Part shown: piece by piece, positions 6,144-54,841 of the stretch
How the letters are laid out: every line of letters begins with the position of its first letter
Numbering within the stretch: the stretch's first letter is position 1
Virus record (IMG/VR): IMGVR_UViG_3300015607_000582
Location: 64,001 to 128,000 of that record
Strand: one strand, 5' to 3'
DNA: 64,000 nucleotides
DNA from: a virus
Taxonomy: Duplodnaviria; Caudoviricetes
Notes under the pieces: model-generated
Told to the model about the DNA's origin: nothing
The model's input: the letters and a program-made list of their open reading frames with translations, nothing else
Database searches by the model: none
Program-made: the position numbers and the translations under genes

Positions 6144-6169
6144 ATGCTACTGACCGCGTCGGACGAACC
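6144..6169 (-). promoter_or_regulatory. Class II (middle-type) promoter
   Basis: GGTTCGTCCGAC-N8-TAGCAT. Confidence 0.75.
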
Positions 6170-6184
6170 TCTCGACTGACATGC

Positions 6185-6217
6185 AAAAGGGGCTGGCCGC
6201 GAGTGCGACCAGCCCCT
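6185..6217 (-). terminator. Intrinsic terminator
   Basis: GGGGCTGGTCGC-ACTC-GCGGCCAGCCCC-TTTT. Confidence 0.75.
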
Positions 6218-6355
6218 GCCCCGGACGACCAACGTCGGGATGCAGTAGCCCGGCAGGCCATACGGCGAACGGAGGAACACCGACCTGCCGGGCGACGAGG
6301 GGAGACGCCGACCAAAGCATCTCTCACCCTCGCCCCGCGCTCTAGGCGCGGAAAC

Positions 6356-6808
6356 TCACTTGGCGATGTACTGGAGCACGGCGAACATCGTCGCGCCGGT
6401 CAGCACGCCGATGCCGAAGAGGTTGACGCCAGCGGCAGCCAGCATCGACCAGCTCGGGCGCGTGACCTGCGTGACGACCAGCTCTCCGGGGAGGAGCGGG
6501 TTGTCGAGCCAGTCGCGCTTGTGCGCCTCGAACTCCTCCGGGGTCATCAGCCGCTTGGCCGTCTCGTCGACGTAGTCGAGCGGCGACTTGCCGGGCTCGG
6601 TCTCGCCGAGCGAGGCAGCGCCCACGCTCGTCTCCTCCGCGCCGTTGTCGTGCTGCGTCACGATGCGCGACGTCGGGTCGGGGCGACGGTGTGCGGGCTC
6701 GGTGGCGTTGACGCGCTCGACGTTCGCTGGCGCAGTCCACGCCCCGTTGTCGGCCGGTGCGATGACCGGCTCGGTGTCCTTGGTGGTGTCGTTGACGCTC
6801 TGGCTCAT
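6356..6808 (-). CDS. Hypothetical protein with C-terminal transmembrane helix
   Basis: MSQSVND..., hydrophobic C-terminus. Confidence 0.6.
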   Translation of the reverse strand: MSQSVNDTTKDTEPVIAPADNGAWTAPANVERVNATEPAHRRPDPTSRIVTQHDNGAEETSVGAASLGETEPGKSPLDYVDETAKRLMTPEEFEAHKRDWLDNPLLPGELVVTQVTRPSWSMLAAAGVNLFGIGVLTGATMFAVLQYIAK

Positions 6809-7095
6809 GAGACGCCTCCCTGCCGCACTCCCTGCGGCATCGCGATGTTCGTACCGGGCAGTGCGATGCCCGAGTTCTGGGCCCTCACCTGCGCGATCTG
6901 CTCGTACTCGTTCTGCATGGCGGGGCGGAACAGGGTGACCTCGTCGATCCTGACGCCCCACTGCTTCCCGGTGACCGCATCCGTGACCTGCACGAAGCGG
7001 ACGTCGCGATCCGACATGCGGTGCGCGAGGTCGTCGAACGAATCGCTGACCGCCATCAGCGACTGGCCGAGCTGGATCATGGAGATGTCGTTCAT
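6805..7095 (-). CDS. Hypothetical protein
   Basis: MNDISMIQ..., coupled. Confidence 0.55.
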   Translation of the reverse strand: MNDISMIQLGQSLMAVSDSFDDLAHRMSDRDVRFVQVTDAVTGKQWGVRIDEVTLFRPAMQNEYEQIAQVRAQNSGIALPGTNIAMPQGVRQGGVS

Positions 7096-7268
7096 GCAGC
7101 GACCCCCATGACCTTGCCGGTGGCCACGTCGAGCGCCGTCCGGCGCATCCCGAGAGCGGCCACGGCCTGCAGGAATGCAGTGCGGTCGTCGTCGATGATG
7201 GCCTTGAGCAGCACGTCCACCGATTCGGTGTACGAGCCCACTGCTTCGATCAGTTCGTTCAGGTCCAT
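7092..7268 (-). CDS. Hypothetical protein (58 aa, not in ORF track)
   Basis: MDLNELIEAVG..., GGAGGGG RBS, downstream of class II promoter. Confidence 0.55.
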   Translation of the reverse strand: MDLNELIEAVGSYTESVDVLLKAIIDDDRTAFLQAVAALGMRRTALDVATGKVMGVAA

Positions 7269-7296
7269 TCGGCCCCTCCGTTAGTTGACTCCCGAC

Positions 7297-7322
7297 AGCG
7301 TACCGGACGCGCCGGACGAACC
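7297..7322 (-). promoter_or_regulatory. Class II promoter
   Basis: GGTTCGTCCGGC-N8-TACGCT. Confidence 0.72.
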
Positions 7323-7359
7323 TCAAGGGGCGAGGCGTCCGGTACGCTGCGCCATGGCG

Positions 7360-7725
7360 TCAGGCGTACGGGATGTACCAGCCGTCCTTGGTGACGCTCT
7401 CGAACCAGTCCGCGATGCGCGGGCTGATGCCGACGAGCTGCTGGTAGTCGGCGGCCTTGACTTCGAGGATGCACGCGCCCGTGTCCGCGATGCCGAAGCC
7501 GAGCGCGTCGTAGAGCAGCTCGGTGTCGCCTCCCTCGACATCCTCGGTGATCGCCTCGGCCGTGTAGCGCCCGCCGAAGTGGACCTCGCCGTCCTCGTCG
7601 CGGAGACGGAAGCGGTAGGTCGTTGCGCCCGTGGGGATCTCGCCTTCGCCGTATCCGACGCGGTTGTACTCGTCGCCGGGCTCGTTGAGGTAGTCGCGGT
7701 CGATGATCCAAGCTGCTGCGTTCAT
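7360..7725 (-). CDS. Hypothetical early protein
   Basis: AACGGAGACCGACC-ATG; FRLRDEDGEVHFGG. Confidence 0.7.
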   Translation of the reverse strand: MNAAAWIIDRDYLNEPGDEYNRVGYGEGEIPTGATTYRFRLRDEDGEVHFGGRYTAEAITEDVEGGDTELLYDALGFGIADTGACILEVKAADYQQLVGISPRIADWFESVTKDGWYIPYA

Positions 7726-7766
7726 GGTCGGTCTCCGTTTCGATTCAGGGTGGCTACTTGAGCATC

Positions 7767-7833
7767 ACTCTACCCGATACATCGAGAAAAGCAACCCCAT
7801 TGTTCCGCAAAAGTGCGCTCTTTGCGAGATTTT
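7767..7833 (-). promoter_or_regulatory. Class I early promoter plus upstream block
   Basis: AAAATCTCGCAAAGAGCGCACTTTTG...TTGCTT-16nt(CGATGTATCG)-TAGAGT. Confidence 0.75.
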
Positions 7834-7838
7834 CGCCG

Positions 7839-8033: not shown

Positions 8034-8034
8034 G

Positions 8035-8325: not shown

Positions 8326-8328
8326 GAC

Positions 8329-9373: not shown

Positions 9374-9870
9374 CAGTCGACCAGCTTGAGGTAGATGATG
9401 TTCTCGCTGCCGAGCCGCGTCTCGTTGTACGAGCCCGAGGCGCGGAACCCATAGTGCTCGACGAACCGGCGCGCACGCTCGTTGCCCGCGTGAACGTGGC
9501 ACTTGATGTAGTCCACGTTGAACGCCTCGACGACACCGAGGCGGTACTCCATCAGCCGAGACCCGTACGAGTGCCCAGACGAGTTGACGTACAGGTTCCC
9601 GAAGTAGGCGATGCTGTCGTCGCCGTCGTCCTTGAGCGTCAGCCCCGCCATGCCCCGCACCTCTCCGCCGTCCTCGACAACGTACAGGGCGTGGGGTGAG
9701 CGCAGGTGCTGCTTGATGTACTCGGGCGTCGCGAAGCGATCCTGCCACGCGGCGACCTGATCGAGCGTGTGACCCAGTCGCGTCAGCAGGATGGTCGACA
9801 CCTCTCGCTTGAGCTGCAGCAGCAGCTCGGCGTCAGCCGACTTCGCCTTGCGGATGCGGATGTCACTCAT
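9373..9870 (-). CDS. GNAT family acetyltransferase
   Basis: IRKA...D, LYV...GHSYGSRLM, VHAGNERARRFVEHYGF. Confidence 0.82.
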   Translation of the reverse strand: MSDIRIRKAKSADAELLLQLKREVSTILLTRLGHTLDQVAAWQDRFATPEYIKQHLRSPHALYVVEDGGEVRGMAGLTLKDDGDDSIAYFGNLYVNSSGHSYGSRLMEYRLGVVEAFNVDYIKCHVHAGNERARRFVEHYGFRASGSYNETRLGSENIIYLKLVD

Positions 9871-10189
9871 CTTCGACCACCCACTGGGGGCTCAGCTCGC
9901 CGATGAGCTGATTCACGCCTTCGACCACCTTGGCGATGTACTCGTCGGCCATGGCGATGACGTCGCGCGAGACGGTGTTCGGCTTCGAGACCATGCCGCC
10001 GGTGACGTGATCGTAGACGTGCGAGACGTTGTCACTCAGCGAGGCGATGTCAGCCCACTCGGCGCGGATCTGATCGACCAGCACCTTCACGAGGCGGCCG
10101 GAGAACACGCTGCCGGGCTTGGCAGCCTCCCGCTCGACCGCGTTCAGGAACTCGTCCGTCATCTGGGTTGGATCACTCGGCAACTGCAT
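9863..10189 (-). CDS. Hypothetical protein
   Basis: RBS, GC3-rich; VYDHVTGGMVSKPN. Confidence 0.65.
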   Translation of the reverse strand: MQLPSDPTQMTDEFLNAVEREAAKPGSVFSGRLVKVLVDQIRAEWADIASLSDNVSHVYDHVTGGMVSKPNTVSRDVIAMADEYIAKVVEGVNQLIGELSPQWVVEDE

Positions 10190-10218: not shown

Positions 10219-10244
10219 ACGCTACCCGCCGCGCCGGACGAACC
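10219..10244 (-). promoter_or_regulatory. Class II promoter
   Basis: GGTTCGTCCGGC-N8-TAGCGT. Confidence 0.72.
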
Positions 10245-10421: not shown

Positions 10422-10422
10422 G

Positions 10423-10593: not shown

Positions 10594-11051
10594 CAGGACT
10601 GCCCCACCTTCACGTCCTCGCCGCCGGGGACGATGATGGACTTCTCCTCGGCCATGCCCTGCATCTCGGCCTGCCGGGCCGCCATGCGGGCCTCCAGCAG
10701 ACCGGCCTGACCGAGCATGTTGAAAATGAGGATCGTCTGCTGCTCGGCGATGTGACGAGCGAACGCCAGCGGCTGCTCCTGCTGCGTCATGATCGCGTGC
10801 GAGGTGGCTGCAGCTCGCAGCTCCAGCATGGAGTTCAGGATCCGCTGCCGTGCAGTGGCGAAGGTGTCCTGATGCTGCTCCGGATTGGTGCCGACGCTCG
10901 CCGGGTAGACGACCGCCCCTGCGCCATGGTCGAAGATGGCCTGAACCGTCTCCTCGTGCAGCTCGGCGGTGGCGACGCGACCGTCGGCCGTCGTCAGCGT
11001 GATGGCCACGGGAGCCGGGGGCTCCGGGTTCGGCGCTTCGTGCTCAGACAT
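10593..11051 (-). CDS. Hypothetical protein
   Basis: Coupled ORF. Confidence 0.6.
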   Translation of the reverse strand: MSEHEAPNPEPPAPVAITLTTADGRVATAELHEETVQAIFDHGAGAVVYPASVGTNPEQHQDTFATARQRILNSMLELRAAATSHAIMTQQEQPLAFARHIAEQQTILIFNMLGQAGLLEARMAARQAEMQGMAEEKSIIVPGGEDVKVGQS

Positions 11052-11391
11052 TCGTGAACAGCTCCTTGCCTGCGCCCAGCGCCTTGCACTGGGCCATGTA
11101 GTTTGCGGTGTGCTCGTCTGCCTTCGCCTCGGGGTCGAAGCCCGCGCTGCGAAGTTCCTTGTCGAGGGCCTGATCCAGCTTCGTGCGAGCGAGGTTGTAC
11201 GCCGCCACGAACGGCCCGCAGATGTCGCAGGACTTGTCCGTGCGGTAGTCGTCCCGACGCTCTCCGCCCTTGCCGGGCTTGGTCGCGCAGGAGCAGCCGT
11301 TGCTGTGCGTGCGCCTCACATGCAGCATCTGCCGCTCGAACTGGCGACGAGCTGCTGCAAGCTGGAAGATGGAATCCGAATCCCCGTTCAT
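11044..11391 (-). CDS. Cys/His-containing hypothetical protein, probably leaderless
   Basis: ATG 7 nt after class II -10; H..GCSC...CDIC. Confidence 0.6.
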   Translation of the reverse strand: MNGDSDSIFQLAAARRQFERQMLHVRRTHSNGCSCATKPGKGGERRDDYRTDKSCDICGPFVAAYNLARTKLDQALDKELRSAGFDPEAKADEHTANYMAQCKALGAGKELFTNV

Positions 11392-11398: not shown

Positions 11399-11424
11399 AT
11401 GCTACAGGGGGCGTCGGACGAACC
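11399..11424 (-). promoter_or_regulatory. Class II promoter
   Basis: GGTTCGTCCGAC-N8-TAGCAT. Confidence 0.75.
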
Positions 11425-13317: not shown

Positions 13318-13529
13318 TTGTTCCTCCAGTTGATCTTGCTGAACGCACGAGCCAGCCTCGCACGCAGCCCCTTGCTGTTCGCCTCGACCCGCAGGATCTC
13401 AAGGTCGCGCTCCAGACGCTGCACCTCGAACTCCAGAGCCTCGGCCCTTGCCTTCTCGCGCTGGAAGGCGTCGTGAGCGAGCTGCAGCACCTCGCGCAGC
13501 TCGACCAGCTCGTCAGAATCGGGCGACAT
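13314..13529 (-). CDS. Coiled-coil hypothetical protein
   Basis: MSPDSDELVE..., GAGGTGG RBS. Confidence 0.55.
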   Translation of the reverse strand: MSPDSDELVELREVLQLAHDAFQREKARAEALEFEVQRLERDLEILRVEANSKGLRARLARAFSKINWRNK

Positions 13530-14082
13530 GATCCACCTCGCTCTGGAAGCATGAAAGACACACGGGCGCGTACACCTCGGAGCCGCCGACCTGCACGACG
13601 TCACCCGACGTGACCACCTTGCCGTTGCCGTCGAAGCGACGAGTGCGCTGCGCCGGGGCACCGCATCCGTTGCACTGCGACGTCAGCGGCTTCACGTACG
13701 ACATGAGCTGCAGCTCGCGAGTCGTGGGGAACCACTCCCCGAAGCAGTCCCGATCCAGACCGGCCGCGACGATCATCAGGTCGCGCTGCAGCGGCTTGAG
13801 CATGTCGGCGAGCGCCTCGGGGAAGAACTGGACTTCGTCGAGCGCGATGGCGTCAGCGAAGCCAGCGGCGAAGTTCAGGGCCTCGGCGAGGTGCTGCTCG
13901 TCGCGGATCAGCGTGGCCGAGATGGTGCGCCCAGTGTGGGCCACGATGCGACGCGCGTCGTAGCGGTCGTCGATGCTCGGCTTGAGCACCATGGTGGTCT
14001 TCCCGCGCTGGCGCAGGGAAGTCACCTCGTCGATGAGGTGGGTGGTCTTGCCAGCCCACATTGGGCCGAGGTACAGGATCAA
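13513..14082 (-). CDS. tdk: Thymidine kinase
   Basis: GPMWAGKTT, DEVQFF, AGLDRD, CxxC...Y..VC..C. Confidence 0.92.
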   Translation of the reverse strand: MILYLGPMWAGKTTHLIDEVTSLRQRGKTTMVLKPSIDDRYDARRIVAHTGRTISATLIRDEQHLAEALNFAAGFADAIALDEVQFFPEALADMLKPLQRDLMIVAAGLDRDCFGEWFPTTRELQLMSYVKPLTSQCNGCGAPAQRTRRFDGNGKVVTSGDVVQVGGSEVYAPVCLSCFQSEVDHVARF

Positions 14083-14114: not shown

Positions 14115-14140
14115 ATCCTAGAGCACGGGTCGGACGAACT
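14115..14140 (-). promoter_or_regulatory. Class II promoter
   Basis: AGTTCGTCCGAC-N8-TAGGAT, upstream of tdk. Confidence 0.7.
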
Positions 14141-15084: not shown

Positions 15085-15170
15085 GGGGTCCTCCAGTTTA
15101 GCCTACAGGGACGGCGCTCCGATCCGAAGATGCAGAACGCAAACGACCCTCCGGAGAGGGTCGCTGGTGC

Positions 15171-15196
15171 ATCATAGACTACCCGTCGGACGAACC
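15171..15196 (-). promoter_or_regulatory. Class II promoter
   Basis: GGTTCGTCCGAC-N8-TATGAT. Confidence 0.75.
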
Positions 15197-16586: not shown

Positions 16587-16876
16587 CCCTGACCCTCCGT
16601 CTCCATCGCCAGCTTCTTGCGGAGCTTGGCCGCGCGCTTGAGCGCCTTGCCGCGATTGAGCCGCCCGACGCGACGCCACCACGGCAACTCCAGCATCGAC
16701 CAGATGAGGTTCACCTCGTCGACGATGTCGTTGATGACACGCTCGTTGAGCTGCAGAACCTCCTCGATGAACCCCGCCTGCTTGTTGACGACGTCACCAA
16801 GCGAGATGACGTCATCCTGCAGCGCGTCGAAGGCTTCCTGCCCGAGTTCCATGTGTTCGATCCTCCAGTTGCTCAT
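16583..16876 (-). CDS. Hypothetical protein
   Basis: MSNWRIEH..., coupled. Confidence 0.55.
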   Translation of the reverse strand: MSNWRIEHMELGQEAFDALQDDVISLGDVVNKQAGFIEEVLQLNERVINDIVDEVNLIWSMLELPWWRRVGRLNRGKALKRAAKLRKKLAMETEGQG

Positions 16877-17080: not shown

Positions 17081-17106
17081 AGCGTACCGACCGCGTCGGA
17101 CGAACC
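17081..17106 (-). promoter_or_regulatory. Class II promoter
   Basis: GGTTCGTCCGAC-N8-TACGCT. Confidence 0.75.
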
Positions 17107-31068: not shown

Positions 31069-31094
31069 ATCATAGAGACGGCGTCGGACGAACC
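31069..31094 (-). promoter_or_regulatory. Class II promoter
   Basis: GGTTCGTCCGAC-N8-TATGAT. Confidence 0.75.
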
Positions 31095-32390: not shown

Positions 32391-34670
32391 CTACTCCATG
32401 TTCCGGCGGAAGGCGGGCGGCACCTTGTCGATCACCACGCGACTGCTCCGGCGCATGTCCCACTTCAACTCCGGCTCGTCGGCTGCCACGACGGTGCGCT
32501 TCGACGATTCCTTGATGCGTCGCGACCGCTTGCTCAGCTCGATCTCGATCATGGTCTCCTTGAGCCCCGCCAGTCGCCTGTCCACTTCCTCCGGATCCAG
32601 CTCGGCAAAGCTGGCTCCGACTGGCTTCGGCATACCGGGGCGACGCTCGTCGCTGATCGGCGGCCTTGCCCCCATGTTGCCTGCACCGCCGGACGAACCT
32701 CCGGGGATGGGCGGAGCCCCGCCCGGAGGAGTGCCCAGTCCCGGCGGAGGGGGCGGCATCACGATGCCGCCGGGCAGACCGCCCGCCATGTCGCCGCCGG
32801 GAGGCGGGCCGCCCACCATGCCGCCGCCCATGTCGCCGCCGGGCGGCGGGCCGCCCATGCCACCCGGAGCACCGGGCCCCATCGCGGGTGCGTTCGTGCT
32901 CTCGACCTCGGCCTTGAGGTCGGGCGGAATCGGCAGGCCCTGCGTCTGCAGGATCTTGTACGTCTGGAGCTTCGCCTGCTGCTGGGCGACGGTCTTCTGG
33001 ATCATCTCCTCGGACAGCTCATCGAGCGTGTCCTTGAAGTCGAAGCCGACGTTGACCATGAGGCGGTTGTCACTGATCGGGGCACCCATGGCGCGCAGGG
33101 TCTGGAGGAACTGTCGCTCCGTCGCCTCGTCGCGCATGTTGAAGTTCTCGAACTGCAGGTCGATGTCGAGGAGCTTGTGCTTCTCGACGATGTAGGGATC
33201 GCCGTCATCGTCGTACTCGATCACTTCCTCCATGATCGGCACGCGGGTCTGGCCCCGCTTCTCGTAGTCGTAGTGGCCCTGCGCCTCGGCGACCACCTGA
33301 GCCCGCTCGGTGAAGAACCGCTTCAGGTAGTTCTGGTAGGTCTTCATCTGCTGGTTCATGAACTCCGCCTGCAGGGCGGAGCTGGCGTACGGCTGCGCGT
33401 TCGAGCCACTGGAAAGCAGCGACGGGTTGATGCCGAAGCCCTGCATGATGCGGCGCTCGATGCGGTCGAAGTCGTTGCCGAGATCCGGCACCTGCTCGCG
33501 GCCGAAGACGTTCTGGACGTCGAGCGCGTGATGGTAGACGAGCAGGCGGAAGTCGCTGGCGAGCGCGATGTCCATGTCGTCGCGGAAGCTGTCGAGCTGG
33601 TCGGGCGTCGGCAGCCACCCCTCCTGCCCGGCGATCATGTCGCTCGTGCCGAGCTTGGCGAGGATGAGCGGCGAGTACAGGCGCTCTGCGATGGCGTCCT
33701 GCGACGCCAGCAGCTTCTCCTCGTGGAGCAGCGTGCGCAGGATGCCGAGCATGATCGGCGTACCGTGATCGTCCCAGTCCGTGTGCGTCGTCGCGATGTG
33801 CTTGAGCATCACGTCGGACACGGGGAACGGCTCGCCGCGCAGGGCGTACGGGATCAGGTGCTCGTAGTTGATCTGGAGCTGCTTGTACTCGTCGGACGGC
33901 GACTTCGTCTGCGCGAGGCGGCGCAGGGATTCGGGCAGGTGAACCTTGAGCTGCTGGGTGCCCATGAGCGGGAACCGCTCGATGACGATGTTCTCGGGGT
34001 TGAGCAGCTCTTCGCGCTCCCACACGCCGAGGCTCTCGTTGAACGAGCCGAGCGGGAACGCCTCGCCGACCGTGAACACCTCGCGGCCGATCTTGTAGAG
34101 GAACTCCTCGTAGTTCAGCTTGTCGAGGAACTCCTCCTCGTAGAACTGCGTGACCTTGCGATCCTGACACTCGATGCGCAGCCCGGCCAGCGGGAATCGC
34201 GAGTAGATTTCCACGAGCTGCTTGACGAGGTAGTGCGTCGAGTAGTACAGGCGCATCCACTTGTGCAGCTTGTGGCGATGCCCCTCGTCGGCCATGTTCC
34301 ACGGCAGGCCGGAGAGATCCCAGTATTCCATGGGGTCGTAGAAGCGCGGCAGGGCGGCCATGACGTCGGAGCCCATCGACCCGATCTTCTGCATGCCCAT
34401 CGACGCGCTGGCGTTCCGGTGACGCCGCATCGCCGAGATGACCTCGGCGTTCTTCTGGAGATCGCGCACCTCGGGGCTCGAAGCCGTCCGCTCGAAGTGC
34501 GACCGGACGTCGGCCTGAAGCTGCCCCGGCGTCTTCACCATGGAGGCGTAGTCGTTCGCCGCCGCCATCCGGGCCTTGTAGTTGCGCGGGAGCGAGACCC
34601 CCTGCGCCTGCAGGCTCTGCAGCTCGCGTGCAAGGTCTCGCGGAACCTTCTTGCGCTTTCCGTCACTCAT
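32391..34670 (-). CDS. Portal protein
   Basis: Size, position near terminase; PRFYDP, YSRFP, GEAFP, LLNPE, G.PI patterns; Pro/Gly-rich C-terminus. Confidence 0.75.
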   Translation of the reverse strand: MSDGKRKKVPRDLARELQSLQAQGVSLPRNYKARMAAANDYASMVKTPGQLQADVRSHFERTASSPEVRDLQKNAEVISAMRRHRNASASMGMQKIGSMGSDVMAALPRFYDPMEYWDLSGLPWNMADEGHRHKLHKWMRLYYSTHYLVKQLVEIYSRFPLAGLRIECQDRKVTQFYEEEFLDKLNYEEFLYKIGREVFTVGEAFPLGSFNESLGVWEREELLNPENIVIERFPLMGTQQLKVHLPESLRRLAQTKSPSDEYKQLQINYEHLIPYALRGEPFPVSDVMLKHIATTHTDWDDHGTPIMLGILRTLLHEEKLLASQDAIAERLYSPLILAKLGTSDMIAGQEGWLPTPDQLDSFRDDMDIALASDFRLLVYHHALDVQNVFGREQVPDLGNDFDRIERRIMQGFGINPSLLSSGSNAQPYASSALQAEFMNQQMKTYQNYLKRFFTERAQVVAEAQGHYDYEKRGQTRVPIMEEVIEYDDDGDPYIVEKHKLLDIDLQFENFNMRDEATERQFLQTLRAMGAPISDNRLMVNVGFDFKDTLDELSEEMIQKTVAQQQAKLQTYKILQTQGLPIPPDLKAEVESTNAPAMGPGAPGGMGGPPPGGDMGGGMVGGPPPGGDMAGGLPGGIVMPPPPPGLGTPPGGAPPIPGGSSGGAGNMGARPPISDERRPGMPKPVGASFAELDPEEVDRRLAGLKETMIEIELSKRSRRIKESSKRTVVAADEPELKWDMRRSSRVVIDKVPPAFRRNME

Positions 34671-47000: not shown

Positions 47001-47464
47001 AGGCCCTCGTTGTACTTCTCCAGCAGCTCCCAGTCGAGACGGGGCTGCGGGAACGGGTAGTCGCTCTTGGGGTCGTTCGCCGCCTGCGTGAGGATCTTGA
47101 GGTTGCGGGCCCCGACGTCATTCTGGGCCAGCAGGACGAGGTGGTAGGCGTCGCGCGGATGCGTCAGTCGCCGCTGCGTCCGCCCCGTCTCCGCGTTGGT
47201 GATCTCGCGGTAGTAGCTCTCGGGCCGCTGGTACCGATGCACCTCGGCCTGATACGCCTCCATGCCGCGACCGGCGAAGAGCCCACGCTTGTTCATCGCC
47301 TTCGCGAATGGCTCCCACCCAGCCACGAGGCCGTGGTCGGTGACGAACGCGCCCGGCATCCCGATGCTCTCGATGTGAGCAGCGATCTCCTCGACCGTGC
47401 CAGCGCCGTCGAGGGCACTGAACTCGGAGTGGAGATGCGTAGGACAATACACGCTATCGCACAT
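44015..47464 (-). CDS. dnaE: DNA polymerase III alpha subunit
   Basis: HLHSEFSALDG (PHP), GPGRGSAAGS, PDIDND, KLDLLGL, RPGP, FNKSHA, C-terminal OB fold. Confidence 0.95.
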   Translation of the reverse strand: MCDSVYCPTHLHSEFSALDGAGTVEEIAAHIESIGMPGAFVTDHGLVAGWEPFAKAMNKRGLFAGRGMEAYQAEVHRYQRPESYYREITNAETGRTQRRLTHPRDAYHLVLLAQNDVGARNLKILTQAANDPKSDYPFPQPRLDWELLEKYNEGLICTSACMAGLVAKGVKGDDTDALNRYLRIFGDRFYIELHAYRTQEQRDLNEALVSIAQERGIPTLAVSDAHYACQEDYFNHETLLTAQMGPPGTSEGYGWKSPVTGAMRHHPPDLWIMDGSSMASALSYLGEDRVAESMANTLNVMELCRDITPMERKLHLPKFTQADEVAREVPNNRALLLELMEEGLVERYGDENGDLPDEVVERAEFEFRAITEAFGKGERGLEDYFLITWDLINWCHRQGILTGPGRGSAAGSILAYSLGITDIDPIKYNLFFERFWNPGRADGLPDIDNDIPQKFRGEAKEYLARRWGHDHVRDIGTHIRMQPKSAIDKALKPVYGEIEYDRATGRPKNLVVGSEYYAAAERIKKLIETLEDAGKQPEWHDVINDDGAVIAEGIYTALKDELAPYIEEYPELFEAAEWLTGRLASYGVHASAVILSDEPLTGLLPGRLVEDKTAGVKKLVTQIEMKEVEALGFLKLDLLGLRNLDTLMEAVALVPELAGRNPNDIFKRDIDWDDQPDEMYELLDLKMTLGLFQIEDGNAARRIAKDMEARSLEDLGAIVALNRPGPLRSGMVDRYFERRSGEAPVRYQHEILEPILNETYGDFLYQESVLAYFRAIGYTLSEADDMRSILGKKKVKQMHAEHPRYLQRAQDAGISEEQAEVIWNEIVDFSKYSFNKSHAISYGKVLLWTMWMKYHYPTEFILASILTAKGTTKRSLTERVGDYVNEGRRMGVTVLGPDINRSGVITSKVDDDILFGLSTVKGVNETAAEWIIANRPFESFEDLLAKLEAQNKAHLKLPAAERPEKSPKQLCSRGALNALLNAGAFDGLYEGEYWYCEKQDVPQVRDPSKTVKKDVVVQCDKHRRAEFEQELTGIVFQDLYSDILLDNAERVDGCVTVGDVQLAETGERMRCYGVVAEVDKRTLKEGGYNAGEQWARVTVEWNGSRIQAAAWPGVWKANKSHLLKPGVLGLFDIEVKDRGLTLAGGERLT

Positions 47465-47469
47465 CGTTG

Positions 47470-47958
47470 TCAATACCTTCGCTGATTCGCATGGTGTGGC
47501 TGATGCGGACAGAAGCCGTGAATCCCGATGGAGCAGTTGCAGTTCCAGCAGAGGATGCGGTATGCGTCTGGCCAACCTTCCTTCTTGATCTTGCGCAGCA
47601 GGGTGAGCCCAGTGACACGCTTGCCACTCGGCCAGCGGTGATGATCTGGAACTCCGTGGATGTGATCGAGAGTGAGGAAGTGCTCCTCGGTCTCGCCGCA
47701 GCACGCACACTGGCCACCGTAGGCTTCGAGCATCTCGGCCCGAAGGCGCAGTCGAGCCCTCGTGTTGCTGTTCGCGTTCTGGCGACTGACCTTCTCCCGA
47801 TTCCCCTTGCGCCAGCGCCTCGTGTACTCGCTGTTGCAGAGCTTGCAGTACGACTGCCGGTAGCCCTTCGCCTTGTTCGTGAAGTGGAAGTCATCGACCG
47901 ACTTCTCCTTCTCGCACATCTTGCAGACCTTGGTCGCCACTGCCCTCTCCCATCGCAT
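47470..47958 (-). CDS. Free-standing HNH homing endonuclease
   Basis: N-terminal CxxC..CxxC; YGGQCACCGE..LTLDHI..LCWNCN; start may be 47943. Confidence 0.82.
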   Translation of the reverse strand: MRWERAVATKVCKMCEKEKSVDDFHFTNKAKGYRQSYCKLCNSEYTRRWRKGNREKVSRQNANSNTRARLRLRAEMLEAYGGQCACCGETEEHFLTLDHIHGVPDHHRWPSGKRVTGLTLLRKIKKEGWPDAYRILCWNCNCSIGIHGFCPHQPHHANQRRY

Positions 47959-48134: not shown

Positions 48135-49058
48135 CTACTGGTTGCCGGTCAGCTCGGCCTGCAGCTCCTCGAAGCGAGAACGCTTCTTGGGCTTCGCGGC
48201 CGGAGCCTCCGCCTTGGGCTCGGCGTCGTCGCCGTCCATGTCGTCCGCCACCTTCGCGCCGCCGGAGAACCGGCCCGCCGAGGAGCTGCTGCTCTTCGCA
48301 GAGGTCGACTTGGCGGAGCCGCCCTTCATCTTCGCGTACTTGTTGAAGACGTGGTCCTCGGGCAGCGACTCGACGATCTCCCGCATGCGGTCCTCGGACG
48401 CCAGCTCCTCGACGTACGCTTCGAGGCGCTTCTCGGCCTCCTCGACGTTCTCGGGCATCTCGAACTCCTTGCCCGTGTACGCGATGGGAGCGTAGGTCGT
48501 GTTCTGGTCCTTGCCCTGACGGGTGATGCAGAAGACCTGATCCTCGATGGGACCGATCTCGTCCGCGAACGCCCGCAGGTTGGGGAAGAACGTCGAGGGC
48601 GACTCGATGACGAGGTAGATCGCGGGCTCGGTGACCTCCTCGGAGCCACCGTCCTCGGTCTTGCGGTTGAACGTGCGCTCCATCGGCTTGAACGAGACGA
48701 TCTTGCCGCCCTTGAGCACCGGCTCCATCTCGCAGACGATGGCGATGGAGCGGTTGCTGGGGCTGTAGCCCCGGTCGGCGAGCGGGTCGTACCCGGACGG
48801 GCCGTCGATGTTGGGATCGCGGCGGCTGATGAAGTCGCGCCACATCGGCTTGTTGGTCTTCGGGTTCGTCCCGCAGTCCATCATCTTGTGGTAGAGGACG
48901 GTGGGGATGTCGTCCATTCCACTGAGGAAGAGCACGTAGTGCTTCTCGCCGTCGTCCTTCCAGCGCAGGTTGGGGACGAACGTCCCGCCCTTGCCGCCAG
49001 ACGCAGCGGCCTTCTTCATCTCTTCTCCGCCCTTGCGGAGATTGGCGAACACAGCCAT
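48135..49058 (-). CDS. Single-stranded DNA-binding protein (phage type)
   Basis: Position between primase and polymerase; ITRQG..QNTTY; low-complexity acidic tail. Confidence 0.65.
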   Translation of the reverse strand: MAVFANLRKGGEEMKKAAASGGKGGTFVPNLRWKDDGEKHYVLFLSGMDDIPTVLYHKMMDCGTNPKTNKPMWRDFISRRDPNIDGPSGYDPLADRGYSPSNRSIAIVCEMEPVLKGGKIVSFKPMERTFNRKTEDGGSEEVTEPAIYLVIESPSTFFPNLRAFADEIGPIEDQVFCITRQGKDQNTTYAPIAYTGKEFEMPENVEEAEKRLEAYVEELASEDRMREIVESLPEDHVFNKYAKMKGGSAKSTSAKSSSSSAGRFSGGAKVADDMDGDDAEPKAEAPAAKPKKRSRFEELQAELTGNQ

Positions 49059-49117
49059 TTCACGACTCCTTGGTCTACTGAGCTGATGCACAGTCCCTTG
49101 TGGACCGCGCATGACCA

Positions 49118-49143
49118 AGGATACTGGCCGCGTCGGACGAACC
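49118..49143 (-). promoter_or_regulatory. Class II promoter
   Basis: GGTTCGTCCGAC-N8-TATCCT. Confidence 0.75.
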
Positions 49144-49343: not shown

Positions 49344-50400
49344 GGTGAGCGGCGGAGTACATGATGGACGGCGTGACCCGGCGCAGGGCCGCCTCAAGCT
49401 GGTCGTCATCGCAGTCGCCGAGGTCTGCCTTCTCCGCGTGCCGGGGTGGGGGAACGACCCAGAGGGCCGTGTGATGTTCGAGCGCATCCGTGATGGTCTT
49501 GACGGCCTTGTGGCCCGCCTTGTCGTTGTCGTAGCTCAGCCACAGCTCGCGCATCTTGCGCAGGAGCTTGAGCTGCCCCGGTGACACCATCGCGCCGTAC
49601 GTCGCGACCGCCGGAAGCCCAGCCGTCAGCAGCCGCGCGACCGACATCGGCGACTCGACCACGAGCGTCGGCCTGTCGAGCACCAGCACCGCCGAGTTGT
49701 ACACGGTCGACTCCCTCGGGAAGTCGGTCGTGTTGGTGTACTTGGGCACCCAGCTCGGGACGTCGTCGCCGAGCCACCGCTCCTGCCACCCGACGCACTG
49801 GTCGTCGACGAAGACGGGGATGATGAGCGCCGGGCCGACATGGGAGCCGCGCTGGTGCTCCGGATCGTAGCCGAGCTTGAGGTGGCGGCACACGTCGCGG
49901 CCGATGAACCGATTCCGCCCGTCAAGGTGCAGCTCGCCGTCACAGAACAGGTGCTCGCTCGACATGAGATTGTTGCACCACTCGTCGACCTTCGACTTCG
50001 GGTACCACGGCAGGACGGTCTCGTCCTTGGTTCGCCACGGTGTGTCCTCGACGGCGAGACGGCGATGCACCTGCTCAAGGAACCCGGCGTCGGTGCCGGG
50101 CGTGAAGTCGGAGAACTTGGCGAGCCACTCGACGGCGAAATCGTAGTCGCAGTCGAGCACGCGCATGACGAGCTTGATCGGCGTGCCGCCGTACCCGCAG
50201 GTGAAGCACGACCAGACGAGGCGGTCGGTGTTGATCGAGAACGAGGGGTTGCTGTCGACGCCACCATGCTCTGGCAGCGGGCAGTGCGAGAACCACTCGT
50301 CACCACGGATGGTCGTGGCCTCGATCCCCAGCTCGTCGAGCACCTCCTCGATGCGGAGGGTCGCCGCGATCTCGGGCCAGTCGTCGCGCTCGTCAGACAC
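49339..50400 (-). CDS. dnaG: DNA primase (CHC2 Zn finger plus Toprim)
   Basis: CP..H.D.NPSF..CFTCG; VVES; YDND.AG. Confidence 0.88.
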   Translation of the reverse strand: MSDERDDWPEIAATLRIEEVLDELGIEATTIRGDEWFSHCPLPEHGGVDSNPSFSINTDRLVWSCFTCGYGGTPIKLVMRVLDCDYDFAVEWLAKFSDFTPGTDAGFLEQVHRRLAVEDTPWRTKDETVLPWYPKSKVDEWCNNLMSSEHLFCDGELHLDGRNRFIGRDVCRHLKLGYDPEHQRGSHVGPALIIPVFVDDQCVGWQERWLGDDVPSWVPKYTNTTDFPRESTVYNSAVLVLDRPTLVVESPMSVARLLTAGLPAVATYGAMVSPGQLKLLRKMRELWLSYDNDKAGHKAVKTITDALEHHTALWVVPPPRHAEKADLGDCDDDQLEAALRRVTPSIMYSAAHP

Positions 50401-51634
50401 GCTCGATCCACTTCAAGTCGCCGCACACGCCGATCTGGTTCGACACGAGGCCCCTGACGTTCTCGCTGACGCGGGAGGCGATGCTCCCCAGCTCGAACAT
50501 GCGCGACTCGCGCATCTCCTTGTTGGCGTGGATGCCGAGCACGAGGTCGGATGCCTGACCGATGGCGTCCGTCAGGCCGATCTGCGCGAGGTCAGCCATC
50601 TCGGTCAGCCCGGACGCCTCGCGGTTGAACTGCGCCGCCCAGAAGGTCGGCCAGTGCGCTGCGATGTAGTCCTTGATCTCGTAGACCGTGGCCGCGTCGC
50701 GCTGGTTCTTCTCCTTCGCGCTGGAGGTGGGTGTCAGGAAGCTGAACTGGTCGCCCAGCACGACGTCCGGATCCCACGCCTTGGCCCGCTCGGCGACGTG
50801 GCGGACGGTGCGCTCGTCGGGCTGCGGATGGACGAAGCGAACCGTGCCCGACGCCTGCCGCAGCAGCTCGCCGATGGCGCGCATCTCGTCGATCTCCTCG
50901 CTGGTCAGACGCCCCTTGAAGAACTTGGTGTAGCTGACGCCAGCGACCATGCACTGGAACCGCCCGTACATCTCCTCCTCACGCAGCTCCATCGTCTCGA
51001 AGTGGACGCGGGCACCGGCAAGCATGTTCGCGACGGCCGACTTGAGGAGGATCCACGACTTGCCGGTCTTGGGGCGACCGCAGACGAACGTCATCGTGCC
51101 GGGACGCAGTCCGCCGGTCACCTCGTCGATGTCGGGGAAGCCGAACGAGAAGCCGCGATGCGACCCGGCGAGGATCCGCTTGTTGTAGATCGAGATGGCC
51201 CGATCCCAGTCCGCGAGGTCGAGGACGCCAGTGTGGGAGGCGGTCTTGCGGGCGATGTCGCCGAACTGCTCCAGACCGAAGCGCACGGCCTCGTCAGGGT
51301 CGCTCACGGCGAGTGACGCGAGGCGACTGACGACCTCCTTGGCGCGGCTGCGCTGGTAGCGGTCGCGAAGCTGCTCGATGACCCACTCGACGGGGGTCGT
51401 GGGCTCCGCGAAGTGGCCGCCCAGCTCATGGATGATCTGCGGGGCCGTCGGAGCCTTGCCGTGCTTCTCGATGTACTCGATCACGAACGGCAGCAGCTTC
51501 GCCGCGCCCTGCTCGTCCCGCAGCAGCATCTCGGTGCCGATCTGCTCACGGTAGATGGCCATCGCCGAGTCGGGCACCGCGAGGTGCTCGATCAGCTCGT
51601 CCTCGATGTCGATGGGCTCGTCGATCAGCTCCAT
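50393..51634 (-). CDS. dnaB: Replicative DNA helicase
   Basis: TGGLRPG, GRPKTGKS, AQFNRE, IGQASD. Confidence 0.88.
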   Translation of the reverse strand: MELIDEPIDIEDELIEHLAVPDSAMAIYREQIGTEMLLRDEQGAAKLLPFVIEYIEKHGKAPTAPQIIHELGGHFAEPTTPVEWVIEQLRDRYQRSRAKEVVSRLASLAVSDPDEAVRFGLEQFGDIARKTASHTGVLDLADWDRAISIYNKRILAGSHRGFSFGFPDIDEVTGGLRPGTMTFVCGRPKTGKSWILLKSAVANMLAGARVHFETMELREEEMYGRFQCMVAGVSYTKFFKGRLTSEEIDEMRAIGELLRQASGTVRFVHPQPDERTVRHVAERAKAWDPDVVLGDQFSFLTPTSSAKEKNQRDAATVYEIKDYIAAHWPTFWAAQFNREASGLTEMADLAQIGLTDAIGQASDLVLGIHANKEMRESRMFELGSIASRVSENVRGLVSNQIGVCGDLKWIERV

Positions 51635-52437
51635 GTCAGTGGCCTCACTTCACCCGAGAGGATCATCTCCTCGTTCTCCAGCCCGTGCTCGACGCGATAG
51701 TCGGCACCCTGCAGCTCGATGCGGAACTGCTTGGCCGACAGCAGGGAGTGGATGCGCGGGAACTCCCGCTCCAGATCCTCCTCCAGCATGTTGGTCGTCG
51801 TCGCCGTCGGCAGGTTGCGCGAGGTGCGGTGCCGGATCACCTCTTCGAGCTGGTCCTCGAAGAAGGAGCGCATCTTGTCCGAGCGCGGCTTGAGGATGTC
51901 GTCGATGACCAAGAACTCGGCGTCGGTCAGCTTCGACCGGATCCAGTCACGGCGAACGGCGTCCTCCAGCTCGTAGAGGGACTTCATCTCCATGAACTGG
52001 ATGAACCAGACGGAGTAGCCGTCGAGCGCGAGTGCCTTGGCGATGTGGGCCGCTGTCATCGTCTTTCCGACGCCGAGGCGCTTGCCCATGATCTCCCAGC
52101 CGAAGCCCGACATGCGTGCCGTCTCGAAGTTCGTGATGTACTTCTCGATCCGGTCGCGGTGCTCGTTGTGCGGGTACTCGTTCCAGTCGAGCACCTGATA
52201 CTCCAGCGGAATGTTGGCCAAGCAGTAGAGCTTGAAGAGCTGGAGCATCGGGTGCGACCCGTACTCGTCCGTCGGGCACTCGTGGTCTTCGCCGCGAAAG
52301 CGGTACGTCCCGGTGCCGCGACAGACGGGGCACTTGCCGCCCGTTCGGATGTAGTCCGGGTTCCTGTCCAGCTCAGCCCGCTGGCTGTCGCTCAGTGCCC
52401 TCGGCAACTTCGTCGCCATCAGATTCGTCAAGTCCAT
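51625..52437 (-). CDS. DnaC/IstB-like ATPase (helicase loader)
   Basis: CPVC.G.G, G..GVGKT, LVIDD, R..LPT..TTN. Confidence 0.82.
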   Translation of the reverse strand: MDLTNLMATKLPRALSDSQRAELDRNPDYIRTGGKCPVCRGTGTYRFRGEDHECPTDEYGSHPMLQLFKLYCLANIPLEYQVLDWNEYPHNEHRDRIEKYITNFETARMSGFGWEIMGKRLGVGKTMTAAHIAKALALDGYSVWFIQFMEMKSLYELEDAVRRDWIRSKLTDAEFLVIDDILKPRSDKMRSFFEDQLEEVIRHRTSRNLPTATTTNMLEEDLEREFPRIHSLLSAKQFRIELQGADYRVEHGLENEEMILSGEVRPLTWS

Positions 52438-53122
52438 CTTCGCCCCTGCCGCGCAGCAAGTCCTCTGCTGCCTCGATCTTCCGCAGGTTCTCGATGCGCC
52501 GTGGCTCGAACTCCTGCAGTACCCTGAGCACGGTATCAGCACGGTCGGACGAACTACCGTCGTCGAGCTTGAGGATGTTGAGCGGAGACCCGGCCGCGAT
52601 GTAGCTCTCCATCAGCTCGCGCAGGGCCTCGTCCACGCCCTTCTCGAACTCGCTGGCGTCGTCGCCGACGGGCAGGTAGAAGGCGTAGTCGTAGTTCCAC
52701 GTCTCGACCAGTGCGATGGCCAAGCAGGGCAGCACCTGCTGGAGGTGGAGCAGCTCCTGTCGCTCGGTGTCGGTGAAGTCGACGTCGAGCAGACGGGCCG
52801 TGAGCGCGTTGATCCGCTGACCGCAGTGGGCCATGCGGTCGAAGCAGGTGCCGACCTCGATGACGCCACGGGCCGCGATCTCATCCTCGCTCTCGCTGCG
52901 GAAGTGGACGAGCTTTGCCCAGAGTGCGAGTGACGTGCGCCACGACCCCTTCTCGCCGAGGGGGAAGCCGTATGCGCTCGTGCGCTGCTCGCTGCCGTTC
53001 CCTCCGGCGAGGTCGACGAGGTATGGGCGATTCTCGTGTGGCCACCCGCACCACAGATCGTGGGCGAGATCGGTCTTGCCAGTCCCCGGTGCCCCGAGGA
53101 TGCCGATGCGAGGAGGCGTCAC
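52373..53122 (-). CDS. P-loop NTPase / nucleotide-kinase-like protein
   Basis: RIGILGAPGTGKTDLA; YD..FYLP. Confidence 0.65.
   Translation of the reverse strand: MTPPRIGILGAPGTGKTDLAHDLWCGWPHENRPYLVDLAGGNGSEQRTSAYGFPLGEKGSWRTSLALWAKLVHFRSESEDEIAARGVIEVGTCFDRMAHCGQRINALTARLLDVDFTDTERQELLHLQQVLPCLAIALVETWNYDYAFYLPVGDDASEFEKGVDEALRELMESYIAAGSPLNILKLDDGSSSDRADTVLRVLQEFEPRRIENLRKIEAAEDLLRGRGEDGLDESDGDEVAEGTERQPAG
52530..52555 (-). promoter_or_regulatory. Class II promoter (intragenic, upstream of the DnaC-like gene)
   Basis: AGTTCGTCCGAC-N8-TACCGT. Confidence 0.65.
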
Positions 53123-54027
53123 GACAGCTCGTCCGCCTTCGCCTTGCGAGGCTTGAGGAGGGACATCGAGACCTTCGGTGCCACGCGGAACTTCATGAAG
53201 ACCGCGAGCAGGGACGGGTCGGCCACGACGAGCGCCTCGGCCTTCTCCTCGTCGAGGGTGACGGTCGTGGAGGCCAGCGAGAGCAGCTCCTCTGCATCCA
53301 GCTCGCTCAGGTCGAACGACGAGGACACGGAGAGGGTGACCGTCTTCGTCACGCACTTCTCGGCCAGCTCGGGGAACTCGTCCACGAAGCCGAGGACGTC
53401 GAAGTCAGCGCCGCGCTCAGTCCGCCCACGGCCGTAGACCATCTTCGTCTGCGTGTTGACGTACTGGTACTTCATGTACTGCGGGTCGGGCTCCATGACC
53501 ACGATCCACTCGCGGTCGTTGTCCGGGTTGGGCTCCATGAGCAGCTCACCGTCAGCGGTGATCGCCACGCACATGTCCGGGTAGCGAGTGTTCAGGGCGT
53601 CGTCGATGTCCTCGCCGTCCTTGAGCAGGACGCGCTCGGTGACCCGCTCCAGCGGCACGTTGTCGATGATGTACTGCGTGAGCAGGTCGAAGAACTGGGA
53701 CTTGCGGACGTCCTTCGACTCCTCGGCGTCCTTCCACTTGTCGTAGACCTTGCCGAGGTCTGCGGTGAGGATCTGGAGCTTGTCGTTGACGGTCTCCGCC
53801 GCCTCGATCTGCTCCTCGATGGTCTGCTTCTTGGCCTTGGTCGTCATCTCCGCTCTCCGTTCGATTGCGATCTGCTGATGGGAACAGTGTCCCCTGAACC
53901 TGAACCCGTCACAGTCGCAGACGGGTTCATCTGGCCACGGTGGGAAGAGGACATCGTGTACCGCTCCCTCGATTGTCTGCGAGGGGACGGGGATGATCTC
54001 CCAACCGTGTTCTGGTCCGATTGCCAT
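53119..54027 (-). CDS. Hypothetical protein with N-terminal SWIM finger; alternative start at 53847
   Basis: CDC.GF..RG.CSH; ATG 7 nt after class II -10. Confidence 0.65.
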   Translation of the reverse strand: MAIGPEHGWEIIPVPSQTIEGAVHDVLFPPWPDEPVCDCDGFRFRGHCSHQQIAIERRAEMTTKAKKQTIEEQIEAAETVNDKLQILTADLGKVYDKWKDAEESKDVRKSQFFDLLTQYIIDNVPLERVTERVLLKDGEDIDDALNTRYPDMCVAITADGELLMEPNPDNDREWIVVMEPDPQYMKYQYVNTQTKMVYGRGRTERGADFDVLGFVDEFPELAEKCVTKTVTLSVSSSFDLSELDAEELLSLASTTVTLDEEKAEALVVADPSLLAVFMKFRVAPKVSMSLLKPRKAKADELS

Positions 54028-54034
54028 GTGAACC

Positions 54035-54060
54035 AGTGTACTCGACGGGTCGGATGAACC
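54035..54060 (-). promoter_or_regulatory. Class II promoter
   Basis: GGTTCATCCGAC-N8-TACACT. Confidence 0.72.
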
Positions 54061-54072
54061 GTCTTGGGTATC

Positions 54073-54101
54073 ATCGTAGCGAGTCCCCGCATGGCAGTCA
54101 A
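54073..54101 (-). promoter_or_regulatory. SigA-like promoter
   Basis: TTGACT-17nt-TACGAT, preceded by GGGG as in class I. Confidence 0.65.
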
Positions 54102-54344
54102 CCCCTGTATCGAGGTATTCGCTCTTCTCGGTACACGCGCGTCGCGTGACGCGAGTAAAGGGGCGACTGCGCGGCCTCTCGGAATGGCGCAGTCTCGCCC
54201 AACGGCCTCGTACCGTCTAGGTGTCACCGAACGACCAGTCGGTGTGCTGCCGGTGCTTGCCGGGCCCGCTGGGGGCTATGCTGGGGCCGCTGCTCGACTC
54301 CCGTCGCCGGGGGCAGGTCGCTCCAGAGAAGCGGCCGGAGCCCA

Positions 54345-54370
54345 ATCGTAGCGAGGCCGTCGGACGAACC
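54345..54370 (-). promoter_or_regulatory. Class II promoter with no clear downstream ORF
   Basis: GGTTCGTCCGAC-N8-TACGAT. Confidence 0.7.
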
Positions 54371-54405
54371 GAGGCCCGCCCCGGTGATCGTCGGGACGGG
54401 CCTCG
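54370..54405 (-). terminator. GC-rich hairpin after holin
   Basis: CGAGGCCCGTCCCG...CGGGGCGGGCCTCG. Confidence 0.5.
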
Positions 54406-54451
54406 TGGCGGAGATGATGAGCGGCGAGCCTACGTGCGCGCCTTCGCAGGG

Positions 54452-54766
54452 TCAAGCCTGCTCCACTCCAGCCGATCCCTTCCTGATGGCCTCGACCTGC
54501 GCGACGCTCGTGTTGTAGGCCGCGACGGCCTCGACGGCTGCCTTCTTGAGGTCGTGCCGCTTCGCGCTGTAGGCGATGGCCTGCAGGCTGGTGAGCAGCG
54601 ACACGCCGAGGATGACCCACGGCGCGTACTCGTCCGGAACGACCGGGACGAGATCGGTGAGCACCGTCAGCAGGACGGTTGTCCACTGGATGACGACAGT
54701 GGTGACGAGGGCGATGTACTCGGAGGTCTTCTTGCCCGGCTTGAGGGCGAGGTCGTGCAGTTCCAT
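54452..54766 (-). CDS. Putative holin
   Basis: KPGKKTSEY followed by two hydrophobic helices. Confidence 0.62.
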   Translation of the reverse strand: MELHDLALKPGKKTSEYIALVTTVVIQWTTVLLTVLTDLVPVVPDEYAPWVILGVSLLTSLQAIAYSAKRHDLKKAAVEAVAAYNTSVAQVEAIRKGSAGVEQA

Positions 54767-54789
54767 GATGCTCCAGTGTGTCGGTGTGG

Positions 54790-54801
54790 GCACACATTAG
54801 G
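54790..54801 (-). promoter_or_regulatory. Class III motif variant upstream of holin
   Basis: CCTAA-TGT-GTGC. Confidence 0.5.
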
Positions 54802-54815
54802 CCGGTGCTCTGCCG

Positions 54816-54841
54816 AGTTCGTCCGGCCAGCCGCGTATCAT
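54816..54841 (+). promoter_or_regulatory. Class II promoter (only plus-strand copy seen)
   Basis: AGTTCGTCCGGC-N8-TATCAT, ATG 7 nt later. Confidence 0.75.

Follow-up and report, generated by a model that had tools for sequence, protein, structure and literature searches.

The stretch of DNA considered here (the window, 64,000 bases) comprises bases 64001-128000 of the 142,928-bp IMG/VR record IMGVR_UViG_3300015607_000582, a phage genome with a CheckV completeness of 96% and 65-66% G+C in which the minus strand carries nearly all genes. We analyzed a recurrent element of this phage, the class II site, in which a 12-bp box (RGTTCGTCCGRC) is followed after eight nucleotides by the hexamer TANNNT. 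Class II sites lie ahead of genes for ribonucleotide reductase, kinase-like proteins, a helicase loader and DnaB-like helicase, a single-stranded DNA-binding protein (SSB)-like product with DNA polymerase III alpha, a SWIM-type protein, an SNF2 helicase and a phage sigma-like protein, among others. The portal protein shares 38-42% identity with those of Bxz1-like mycobacteriophages, Rhodococcus phage E3 and large Gordonia phages, and 55-61% with those of some uncultured IMG/VR contigs. The host is presumably a high-GC actinobacterium; scans of genome contigs for FliW and ribonucleotide reductase returned no actinobacterial genome. A DNA search of the phage collection yielded no close relatives, and neither did searches of viral and metagenome contigs with a 1074-aa open reading frame (ORF) and the proteins P0001 and P0004 as queries. 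Phage DNA is present in wastewater metagenomes, where contigs from four runs represent near-identical strains, none of whose differences fall inside class II sites.

A preliminary description of the window had listed 13 class II sites, and every one was found at the position and on the strand it gave:

6144..6169, minus strand: GGTTCGTCCGAC-N8-TAGCAT, with an 80-nt leader to the class II ribonucleotide reductase gene (4092-6056), then FliW; a terminator-like hairpin lies just upstream of the site.
7297..7322, minus strand: ..GGC-N8-TACGCT, with a 21-nt leader and Shine-Dalgarno sequence to a 58-aa ORF (7092-7268); the box abuts an upstream TGA.
10219..10244, minus strand: TAGCGT, box abutting a TGA, 22-nt leader to ORF 9863-10189, which is followed by a GNAT-like ORF (assigned by eye).
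11399..11424, minus strand: TAGCAT, predicted leaderless, ATG 11391 opening ORF 11044-11391; the NAD-ligase gene directly precedes the site.
14115..14140, minus strand: AGTTCGTCCGAC, TAGGAT, 25-nt leader to ORF 13513-14082, a thymidine-kinase-like P-loop protein (assigned by eye).
15171..15196, minus strand: TATGAT, 79-nt leader to ORF 14473-15084, the leader holding a G+C-rich hairpin and then TTTGCGTT; the box overlaps the stop codon of a gene that fuses a winged helix-turn-helix (wHTH) to RNase HI.
17081..17106, minus strand: TACGCT, predicted leaderless, ATG 17073 opening ORF 16873-17073, with ThyX (15909-16682) farther downstream.
31069..31094, minus strand: TATGAT, box abutting a TGA, 22-nt leader to ORF 30788-31039, which is followed by a deoxynucleoside-monophosphate-kinase-like ORF (30198-30788, assigned by eye).
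49118..49143, minus strand: TATCCT, before the SSB-like gene (48135-49091) and DNA polymerase III alpha (44015-47710).
52530..52555, minus strand: AGTTCGTCCGAC, TACCGT, before a DnaC-like loader (51625-52437) and a DnaB-like helicase (50393-51577), both functions being assigned by synteny with Gordonia phage Pupper.
54035..54060, minus strand: variant GGTTCATCCGAC (one mismatch, ATC for GTC), TACACT, predicted leaderless, ATG 54027 opening the gene of a 302-aa SWIM-type protein; a canonical class I promoter lies 38 nt upstream of the site.
54345..54370, minus strand: TACGAT, with a leader of about 310 nt toward the same 302-aa SWIM-type gene.
54816..54841, plus strand: AGTTCGTCCGGC, TATCAT, the sole plus-strand copy, predicted leaderless, ATG 54849 opening an SNF2-family helicase gene (to 56972).

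Exact copies of the 12-mer number 13 in the window against an expectation of 0.14, a count that none of 100 shuffles reached, and the full pattern (box-N8-TANNNT, at most two mismatches) occurs 14 times against 0.29 expected. Genome-wide there are 17 exact copies in 142,928 bp, and no other 11-mer or 12-mer of the genome is as over-represented as the box. With one-mismatch boxes included we counted 18 box-N8-TANNNT sites, all between 45 and 119 kb, five of which precede the window (genome positions 45016, 46879, 50600, 54211 and 57739). When boxes with at most one mismatch were taken irrespective of what follows them, TANNNT stood at exactly +8 in 17 of 20 and at +3 in one (p about 1e-49). The orientation is that of the downstream gene in 18 of 18 sites. 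An information profile of the 18 sites showed conservation at box positions 1-12, weakly at G13 and C14, invariantly at T21, A22 and T26, and at an A or ATG at position 34, whereas no position upstream of the box is conserved, so that there is no -35 consensus. The first, second and last positions of the -10 hexamer are T, A and T in all 18 sites with the middle three free, the same pattern as in the canonical class I promoters of this phage. If +1 is placed at position 34, the box spans about -33 to -22, which supports the earlier proposal that it takes the place of a -35 element. A reading of the extracytoplasmic function (ECF) sigma type, in which the CGTC of the box would serve as -10, was rejected, the sequence upstream of the box being unconserved.

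Outside this genome, searches for RGTTCGTCCGRC-type sequences in IMG/VR and metagenome contigs gave single, chance-level matches only, and a literature search for the box retrieved only unrelated primers. A scan of this high-GC DNA with E. coli-type promoter and terminator models gave no matches. Within the genome, two exact boxes stand without a -10. One is at genome position 7756, and the other, which the preliminary description had missed and which is probably not a promoter, lies inside the portal gene:

32674..32699, minus strand: orphan exact box (32688-32699) with CAACAT in place of TANNNT.

Mycobacteriophage L5 has asymmetric operator and stoperator sites that are oriented with transcription, and the class II box might similarly be a repressor operator placed on -10-only SigA promoters, which it would shut off or hold off early. 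In favor of this idea, the class II box is asymmetric and strictly co-oriented with transcription, orphan boxes without a -10 exist at genome 7756 and window 32688, and TANNNT alone can suffice for SigA in mycobacteria (PMC3898074). Steric repression, however, needs no base-pair-exact spacing, yet the distance is 8 nt in 18 of 18 sites; 17 of 19 exact boxes are tied to TANNNT at that distance and only two lack a -10, whereas stoperators are mostly promoter-free. Moreover, the phage looks lytic, no integrase or repressor having been seen among the proteins covered by a non-exhaustive scan. We therefore regard a repressor operator as very improbable.

The positions of start codons bear on where transcription would begin. 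An ATG lies exactly 7 nt after the -10 in 6 of 18 class II sites (p = 1.2e-7), and these six position-34 ATGs, two of which precede the window, open ORFs of 66-707 aa with high G+C at third codon positions (GC3). The four within the window (11391, 17073, 54027 and 54849) had already been singled out as candidate leaderless starts, and each was confirmed to open a long high-GC3 ORF. Six further sites have leaders of 19-25 nt with a Shine-Dalgarno sequence. These arrangements support the view that several class II transcripts are leaderless. Because the sites are co-oriented with their genes, keep an invariant spacing and are followed by ATGs at an exact offset or by short leaders with Shine-Dalgarno sequences, we consider it very likely that class II sites are promoters.

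The gene of the SWIM-zinc-finger protein (53119-54027, minus strand) and that of the SNF2 helicase (54849-56972, plus strand) diverge from a control region of about 800 bp, which holds one class I, three class II and one class III site. As the preliminary description stated, the single plus-strand copy precedes the only convincing plus-strand operon of the window, that of the SNF2 helicase; by their GC3, the other plus-strand ORFs of the window look like shadows of better minus-strand ORFs. Just past the predicted start of the 15171..15196 site, positions 15085-15165 (minus strand) contain a G+C-rich hairpin, GCGACCCTCTCCGGAGGGTCGT, with TTGCGTT after it; the hairpin may act as an attenuator, or else may terminate the upstream unit from a place behind the promoter.

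We next compared class II sites with actinobacterial promoters. In mycobacteria TANNNT is the signature -10 of SigA, and a -35 is often absent (PMC3898074). PafBC-dependent promoters, termed RecA-NDp, have the consensus tGTCgg(N10)tA(N3)T and lack a -35 while retaining SigA (PMC8635444); the -26 element, which spans -23 to -28 and includes the GTC triplet, is recognized by PafB (PMC8635444), and PafC contacts region 4 of SigA in place of the -35 contact, a mode called sigma adaptation (PMC8635444, PMC6789036). PafBC, an activator that responds to DNA damage, is itself activated by single-stranded DNA (PMC11804915). Positions 5-26 of class II sites read cGTCCG-N10-TANNNT. G6-T7-C8 lies 15 nt before T21, the published PafBC offset, in 17 of 18 sites, which places GTC at -28 to -26 if +1 is position 34. 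The pattern GTCNG-N10-TANNNT occurs 19 times in the genome, as opposed to 0-5 times at the other spacings from N6 to N14. The SigA-type -10, the GTC at a fixed offset and the absence of a -35 that would be expected of a RecA-NDp promoter were thus all found, the shared element being asymmetric with its GTC core at about -28 to -23. Class II sites are also associated, like RecA-NDp promoters, with DNA-metabolism genes, the functional field of the PafBC regulon.

Related phages carry sites of the canonical type. The class II site at 49118..49143 is syntenic with sites in Pupper (TTGTCGGAG-N8-TAGGGT) and E3 (tGTCGG-N10-TACTCT), which match the canonical PafBC consensus and lie between a DnaJ-like gene and an SSB-like gene ahead of DNA polymerase; the SSB-like gene behind 49118..49143 is homologous to that of Pupper (tblastn E = 1.7e-7). 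Canonical PafBC-consensus sites were found as follows, those of Pupper and E3 being intergenic and within the replication module:

Gordonia phage Pupper, 92246 and 105048: canonical PafBC-consensus sites.
Rhodococcus phage E3, 102463: canonical PafBC-consensus site.
Mycobacterium phage Alice, 102461: canonical PafBC-consensus site.

Pupper and Finch have five matches at N10 versus 0-3 at other spacings, a statistically weak excess. The relatives carry only one to a few tGTCGG-N10-TANNNT sites, and their main promoter families differ; in the phage studied here the site type is expanded to 18 copies, and its box is longer and altered.

These comparisons place the class II site closest, among known systems, to the PafBC RecA-NDp promoter rather than to the T4 MotA promoter. 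The preliminary description had chosen T4 MotA as its analogue and had thought the architecture possibly undescribed; PafBC promoters are the closer match in geometry and in the GTC core, and as actinobacterial PafBC-dependent promoters they provide a precedent (PMC8635444). T4 middle promoters, which combine a MotA box with a sigma-70 -10 and depend on AsiA (sigma appropriation), share the layout, namely a phage middle class that keeps the host -10 and has a box in place of the -35. Their box, however, is unrelated in sequence and centered at about -30, compared with -27.5 for class II; homologues of MotA and AsiA were not found in this phage genome; and for class II a host factor of the right geometry exists, so that a phage activator is not required. 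What is new is the divergent, extended variant of the box. Also particular to this phage are the use of the box for replication and nucleotide genes and its presence beside a phage sigma and two other promoter classes. RecA-NDp promoters differ from the 18 near-identical copies on this phage genome, in which all 12 bp of the box are invariant, the 5 bp upstream of GTC among them, and the departures from the consensus are fixed (C for t, C for g/R and AC for tg). No description of PafBC-type promoters on phage genomes was found in the literature searched.

Based on this likeness, we propose that class II sites act as -35-less hybrid promoters of delayed-early or middle genes for nucleotide metabolism, replication and the phage sigma. 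Host RNA polymerase with SigA would read TANNNT and start 7 nt downstream, often at the A of the ATG, while the contact between sigma region 4 and a -35 hexamer would be replaced by an adaptor bound at the box (-33 to -22). Because the invariant GTC sits at -28 to -26, host PafBC, activated by single-stranded DNA, is the most likely adaptor, and replication of the phage DNA or breakdown of the host DNA would then switch the class II genes on. As the PafBC geometry and GTC core are reproduced, a host factor could suffice. The motif with its statistics and geometry, the leaderless starts, the gene classes and the agreement with the published PafBC consensus are observed; where transcription begins, that SigA takes part, which adaptor serves and when the genes are expressed are inferred. 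We assign a probability of roughly 0.5 to the reading in which host SigA recognizes the -10 and host PafBC serves as the adaptor at the box; the more general proposition, that SigA recognizes the -10 and some adaptor occupies the box, appears fairly likely. Put more broadly, the phage probably borrows or imitates the PafBC switch. The earlier suggestion that host SigA is redirected is thereby upheld as far as the SigA-type -10 goes, but the phage activator held to be implied is not, homologues of MotA, AsiA, WYL/PafBC and WhiB having gone undetected.

Several observations weigh against host PafBC as the reader. Of the six positions of tGTCgg the box shares only four, and of the nine of tTGTCRgtg only five, although the host's own consensus may differ; in 18 of 18 sites the G/R position is occupied by C. 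GTC itself is no more invariant than GGTTC (-33 to -29) and the 3' AC, positions that mycobacterial PafBC is not reported to read; invariance beyond GTC would suggest that the reader covers more of the DNA or prefers a different sequence. One class II site has ATC for GTC, matches to the exact box in metagenomes are single and the ORFs downstream of them, on high-GC contigs, are not repair genes, and the match to PafBC was found post hoc. Finally, the phage encodes a sigma-like protein of its own, P0001.

P0001 lies outside the window and was absent from the preliminary description, and it is a serious rival for the role of reader. This 199-aa protein of the sigma-70 family is encoded at genome 45550-46149 (minus strand), 17.9 kb before the window. 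It matched Pfam Sigma70_r4 at 27.7 bits, above the cut-off, and PHROG 351 'sigma factor' at 1e-11, and a PDB profile search matched region 4 of WhiG and RpoS. Its family consists of proteins of about 180 aa with 53 cluster representatives, in which Sigma70_r4 was found in 22 of 28 members and Sigma70_r2 in 6 of 28, these being distant members; one homologue, P0003, is 72% identical. An AlphaFold model built with an alignment had a predicted local distance difference test score (pLDDT) of 83, and its top Foldseek matches were almost all sigma factors. P0001 has a WhiG/RpoS-like region 4.2 and a minimal, ECF-like three-helix region 2, with region 1.2 and the WW dyad absent. The gene stands behind the class II promoter at 46879, after an AbrB/MazE-like 71-aa gene (genome 46528-46743); no class I promoter is near it, and two terminator-like hairpins lie between it and the nearest one.

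P0001 might replace SigA, with GGTTCG recognized by its region 4 in the manner of a -35 and TANNNT by its region 2. Its membership in the sigma-70 family is genuine by profiles, family members and structural comparison, and an intact region 4 implies an upstream element, which among the phage-specific classes only class II has. The GGTTC of the box also resembles the GGTTT/GTTT -35 of SigF/SigB-type promoters. However, the invariant T/A/T of TANNNT is a group 1 sigma signature, whereas P0001 has a minimal region 2 of ECF-like form, and only 14 bp separate GGTTCG from the -10, 3 bp fewer than the geometry of the sigma-70 family permits. The gene itself is behind a class II promoter with no class I promoter nearby, and the reading leaves the GTC at the PafBC offset and the syntenic PafBC sites of the relatives unexplained. 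Because of its minimal region 2 and because GGTTCG is too close to the -10, P0001 ranks second for class II, and we judge its use there unlikely. Phage-encoded sigma cascades are exemplified by gp28 and gp33/34 of Bacillus phage SPO1. Such cascades share with this phage a sigma-70-family protein and three promoter classes that follow gene function, but the class II -10 is indistinguishable from the host SigA type and the class II upstream element is too near the -10 for region 4; of what a phage-sigma promoter should show, the sigma gene was found, whereas a spannable spacing and a distinct -10 were not. P0001 may instead target class III, though that class has no -35.

The box might also be read by a phage-encoded activator or adaptor that recruits or remodels the SigA holoenzyme, in the manner of MotA/AsiA or as an orthogonal form of sigma adaptation. 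A dedicated reader would fit the near invariance of the 12 box positions and their constant difference from the PafBC consensus; searches found the box repeated in no other viral or metagenomic contig, so that it looks private, and many early proteins have no recognizable function. No recognized activator fold was found, however: a six-frame search of the genome for WYL, HTH_PafC, MotA and AsiA (Pfam MotA_activ and AsiA), WhiB and Sigma70_r2 gave no match. A six-frame search for a T7-type RNA polymerase found none, the family search having matched nothing in control genomes either. Only one PafB-type winged HTH is present in the genome:

15196..15912, minus strand: wHTH (HTH_11, 21.8-24.2 bits) fused to RNase HI, the latter part similar to Rv2228c (PDB 3hst, E = 1e-18).

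As a phage-encoded reader of the box this protein has a weak claim; a role as a replication enzyme is the simpler view. Two ORFs previously put forward as activators (40676-41116 and 17108-17566) have no recognizable domain, are not preceded by early promoters and do not belong to the early genes. An existing host factor of the same geometry is also the more parsimonious choice, and we think a phage-encoded adaptor decidedly unlikely. Taken together, a phage-made factor, whether an orthogonal sigma adaptor derived from the PafBC-type layout or P0001 acting at an unprecedentedly short -35/-10 distance, is a doubtful but possible reader of the box; if it were the reader, the architecture of a host DNA-damage promoter would have been privatized for middle genes.

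Class II sites stand beside two further promoter classes. In class I, which exemplifies host-type promoters in this phage, a conserved unit of some 70 nt recurs eight times before small genes without recognizable function. The unit has an A+T-rich upstream block, GGGGTTGC/AC, 17-18 nt and TAGAGT, that is, a canonical -35/-10, and a shared leader, AACGGAGACC, between the -10 and the ATG. The A+T-rich block, (TCT)CGCAAATAGCGAACTTTTG, is carried by 5 of the 8 copies and may serve as an UP-like element or be bound by a regulator. The copies are:

54073..54103, minus strand: class I, GGTTGACT-N17-TACGAT.
638-667, 1645-1674, 3535-3564 and 7767-7796, all minus strand: class I copies in the window.
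Genome 8740, 9977 (plus strand) and 60162 (minus strand): class I copies outside the window.

The other plus-strand block of the genome, at 8.8-11.4 kb, is driven by class I promoters. Class III has the motif CT-N4-cCTAA-N2-GGTGAa. Its 32 copies without exception lie on the coding strand, and mainly before virion genes; 12 are in the window and the remaining 20 elsewhere in the genome:

6051, 14460, 27166, 27311, 29057, 37165, 40864, 47968, 49333, 54791, 57779 and 58533, minus strand: class III sites in the window.

Over the whole genome, CTAA is present 39 times on the minus strand versus 4 times on the plus strand. A search for a -35 block in class III found none, and in some copies the final A of the motif is the A of the start codon. 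The three classes fit an early, middle and late program with class II as the middle tier, its timing being deduced from sequence. The genes served agree with the earlier assignment of class II to DNA metabolism, and the position between canonical early and CTAA-type late promoters would suit a middle class.

If the PafBC reading is correct, a large lytic actinophage would time its replication and nucleotide genes by the layout of a host alarm for single-stranded DNA, with no need of a classical activator; sigma adaptation, a bacterial stress response, would be extended to the timing of viral genes, and many -35-less promoters of actinobacterial phages would have a simple explanation. A link between pafBC and phage resistance is drawn in a 2025 paper. 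The 18 near-identical natural promoters with a variant -26 element should be useful for mapping the positions that PafBC-like adaptors read, and the three-class map together with the phage sigma makes the transcription program of an uncultured phage directly testable.

Multi-copy promoter cassettes are a feature of the related phages as well. De novo dyad and k-mer searches of three IMG/VR and four cultured relatives found no box-like class, but Alice, Pupper and E3 each share with this phage the possession of an own multi-copy, highly conserved TANNNT cassette. That of Alice (GGGAATGAATCC..-TATACT, 11 copies) has a non-canonical element at the -35 position, that of Pupper is TTGACAA-N16-TANNNT (14 copies), and that of E3 is a palindrome over the -10. 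Unlike class II, the three cassettes keep an element at the -35 position, and none contains the class II box. Sites of the 11-copy Alice cassette, GGGAATGAATCCnCATACCGCTnCGT-TATACT, include 9492, 10164, 49921 and 100394. A 15-mer repeat in the relative IMGVR_UViG_3300023184_000079 was considered as a promoter and rejected; this tandem 15-nt array, CAGGTYCGCGCCnnn at 64984-65850 (minus strand), is most likely the gene of a pentapeptide-repeat protein.

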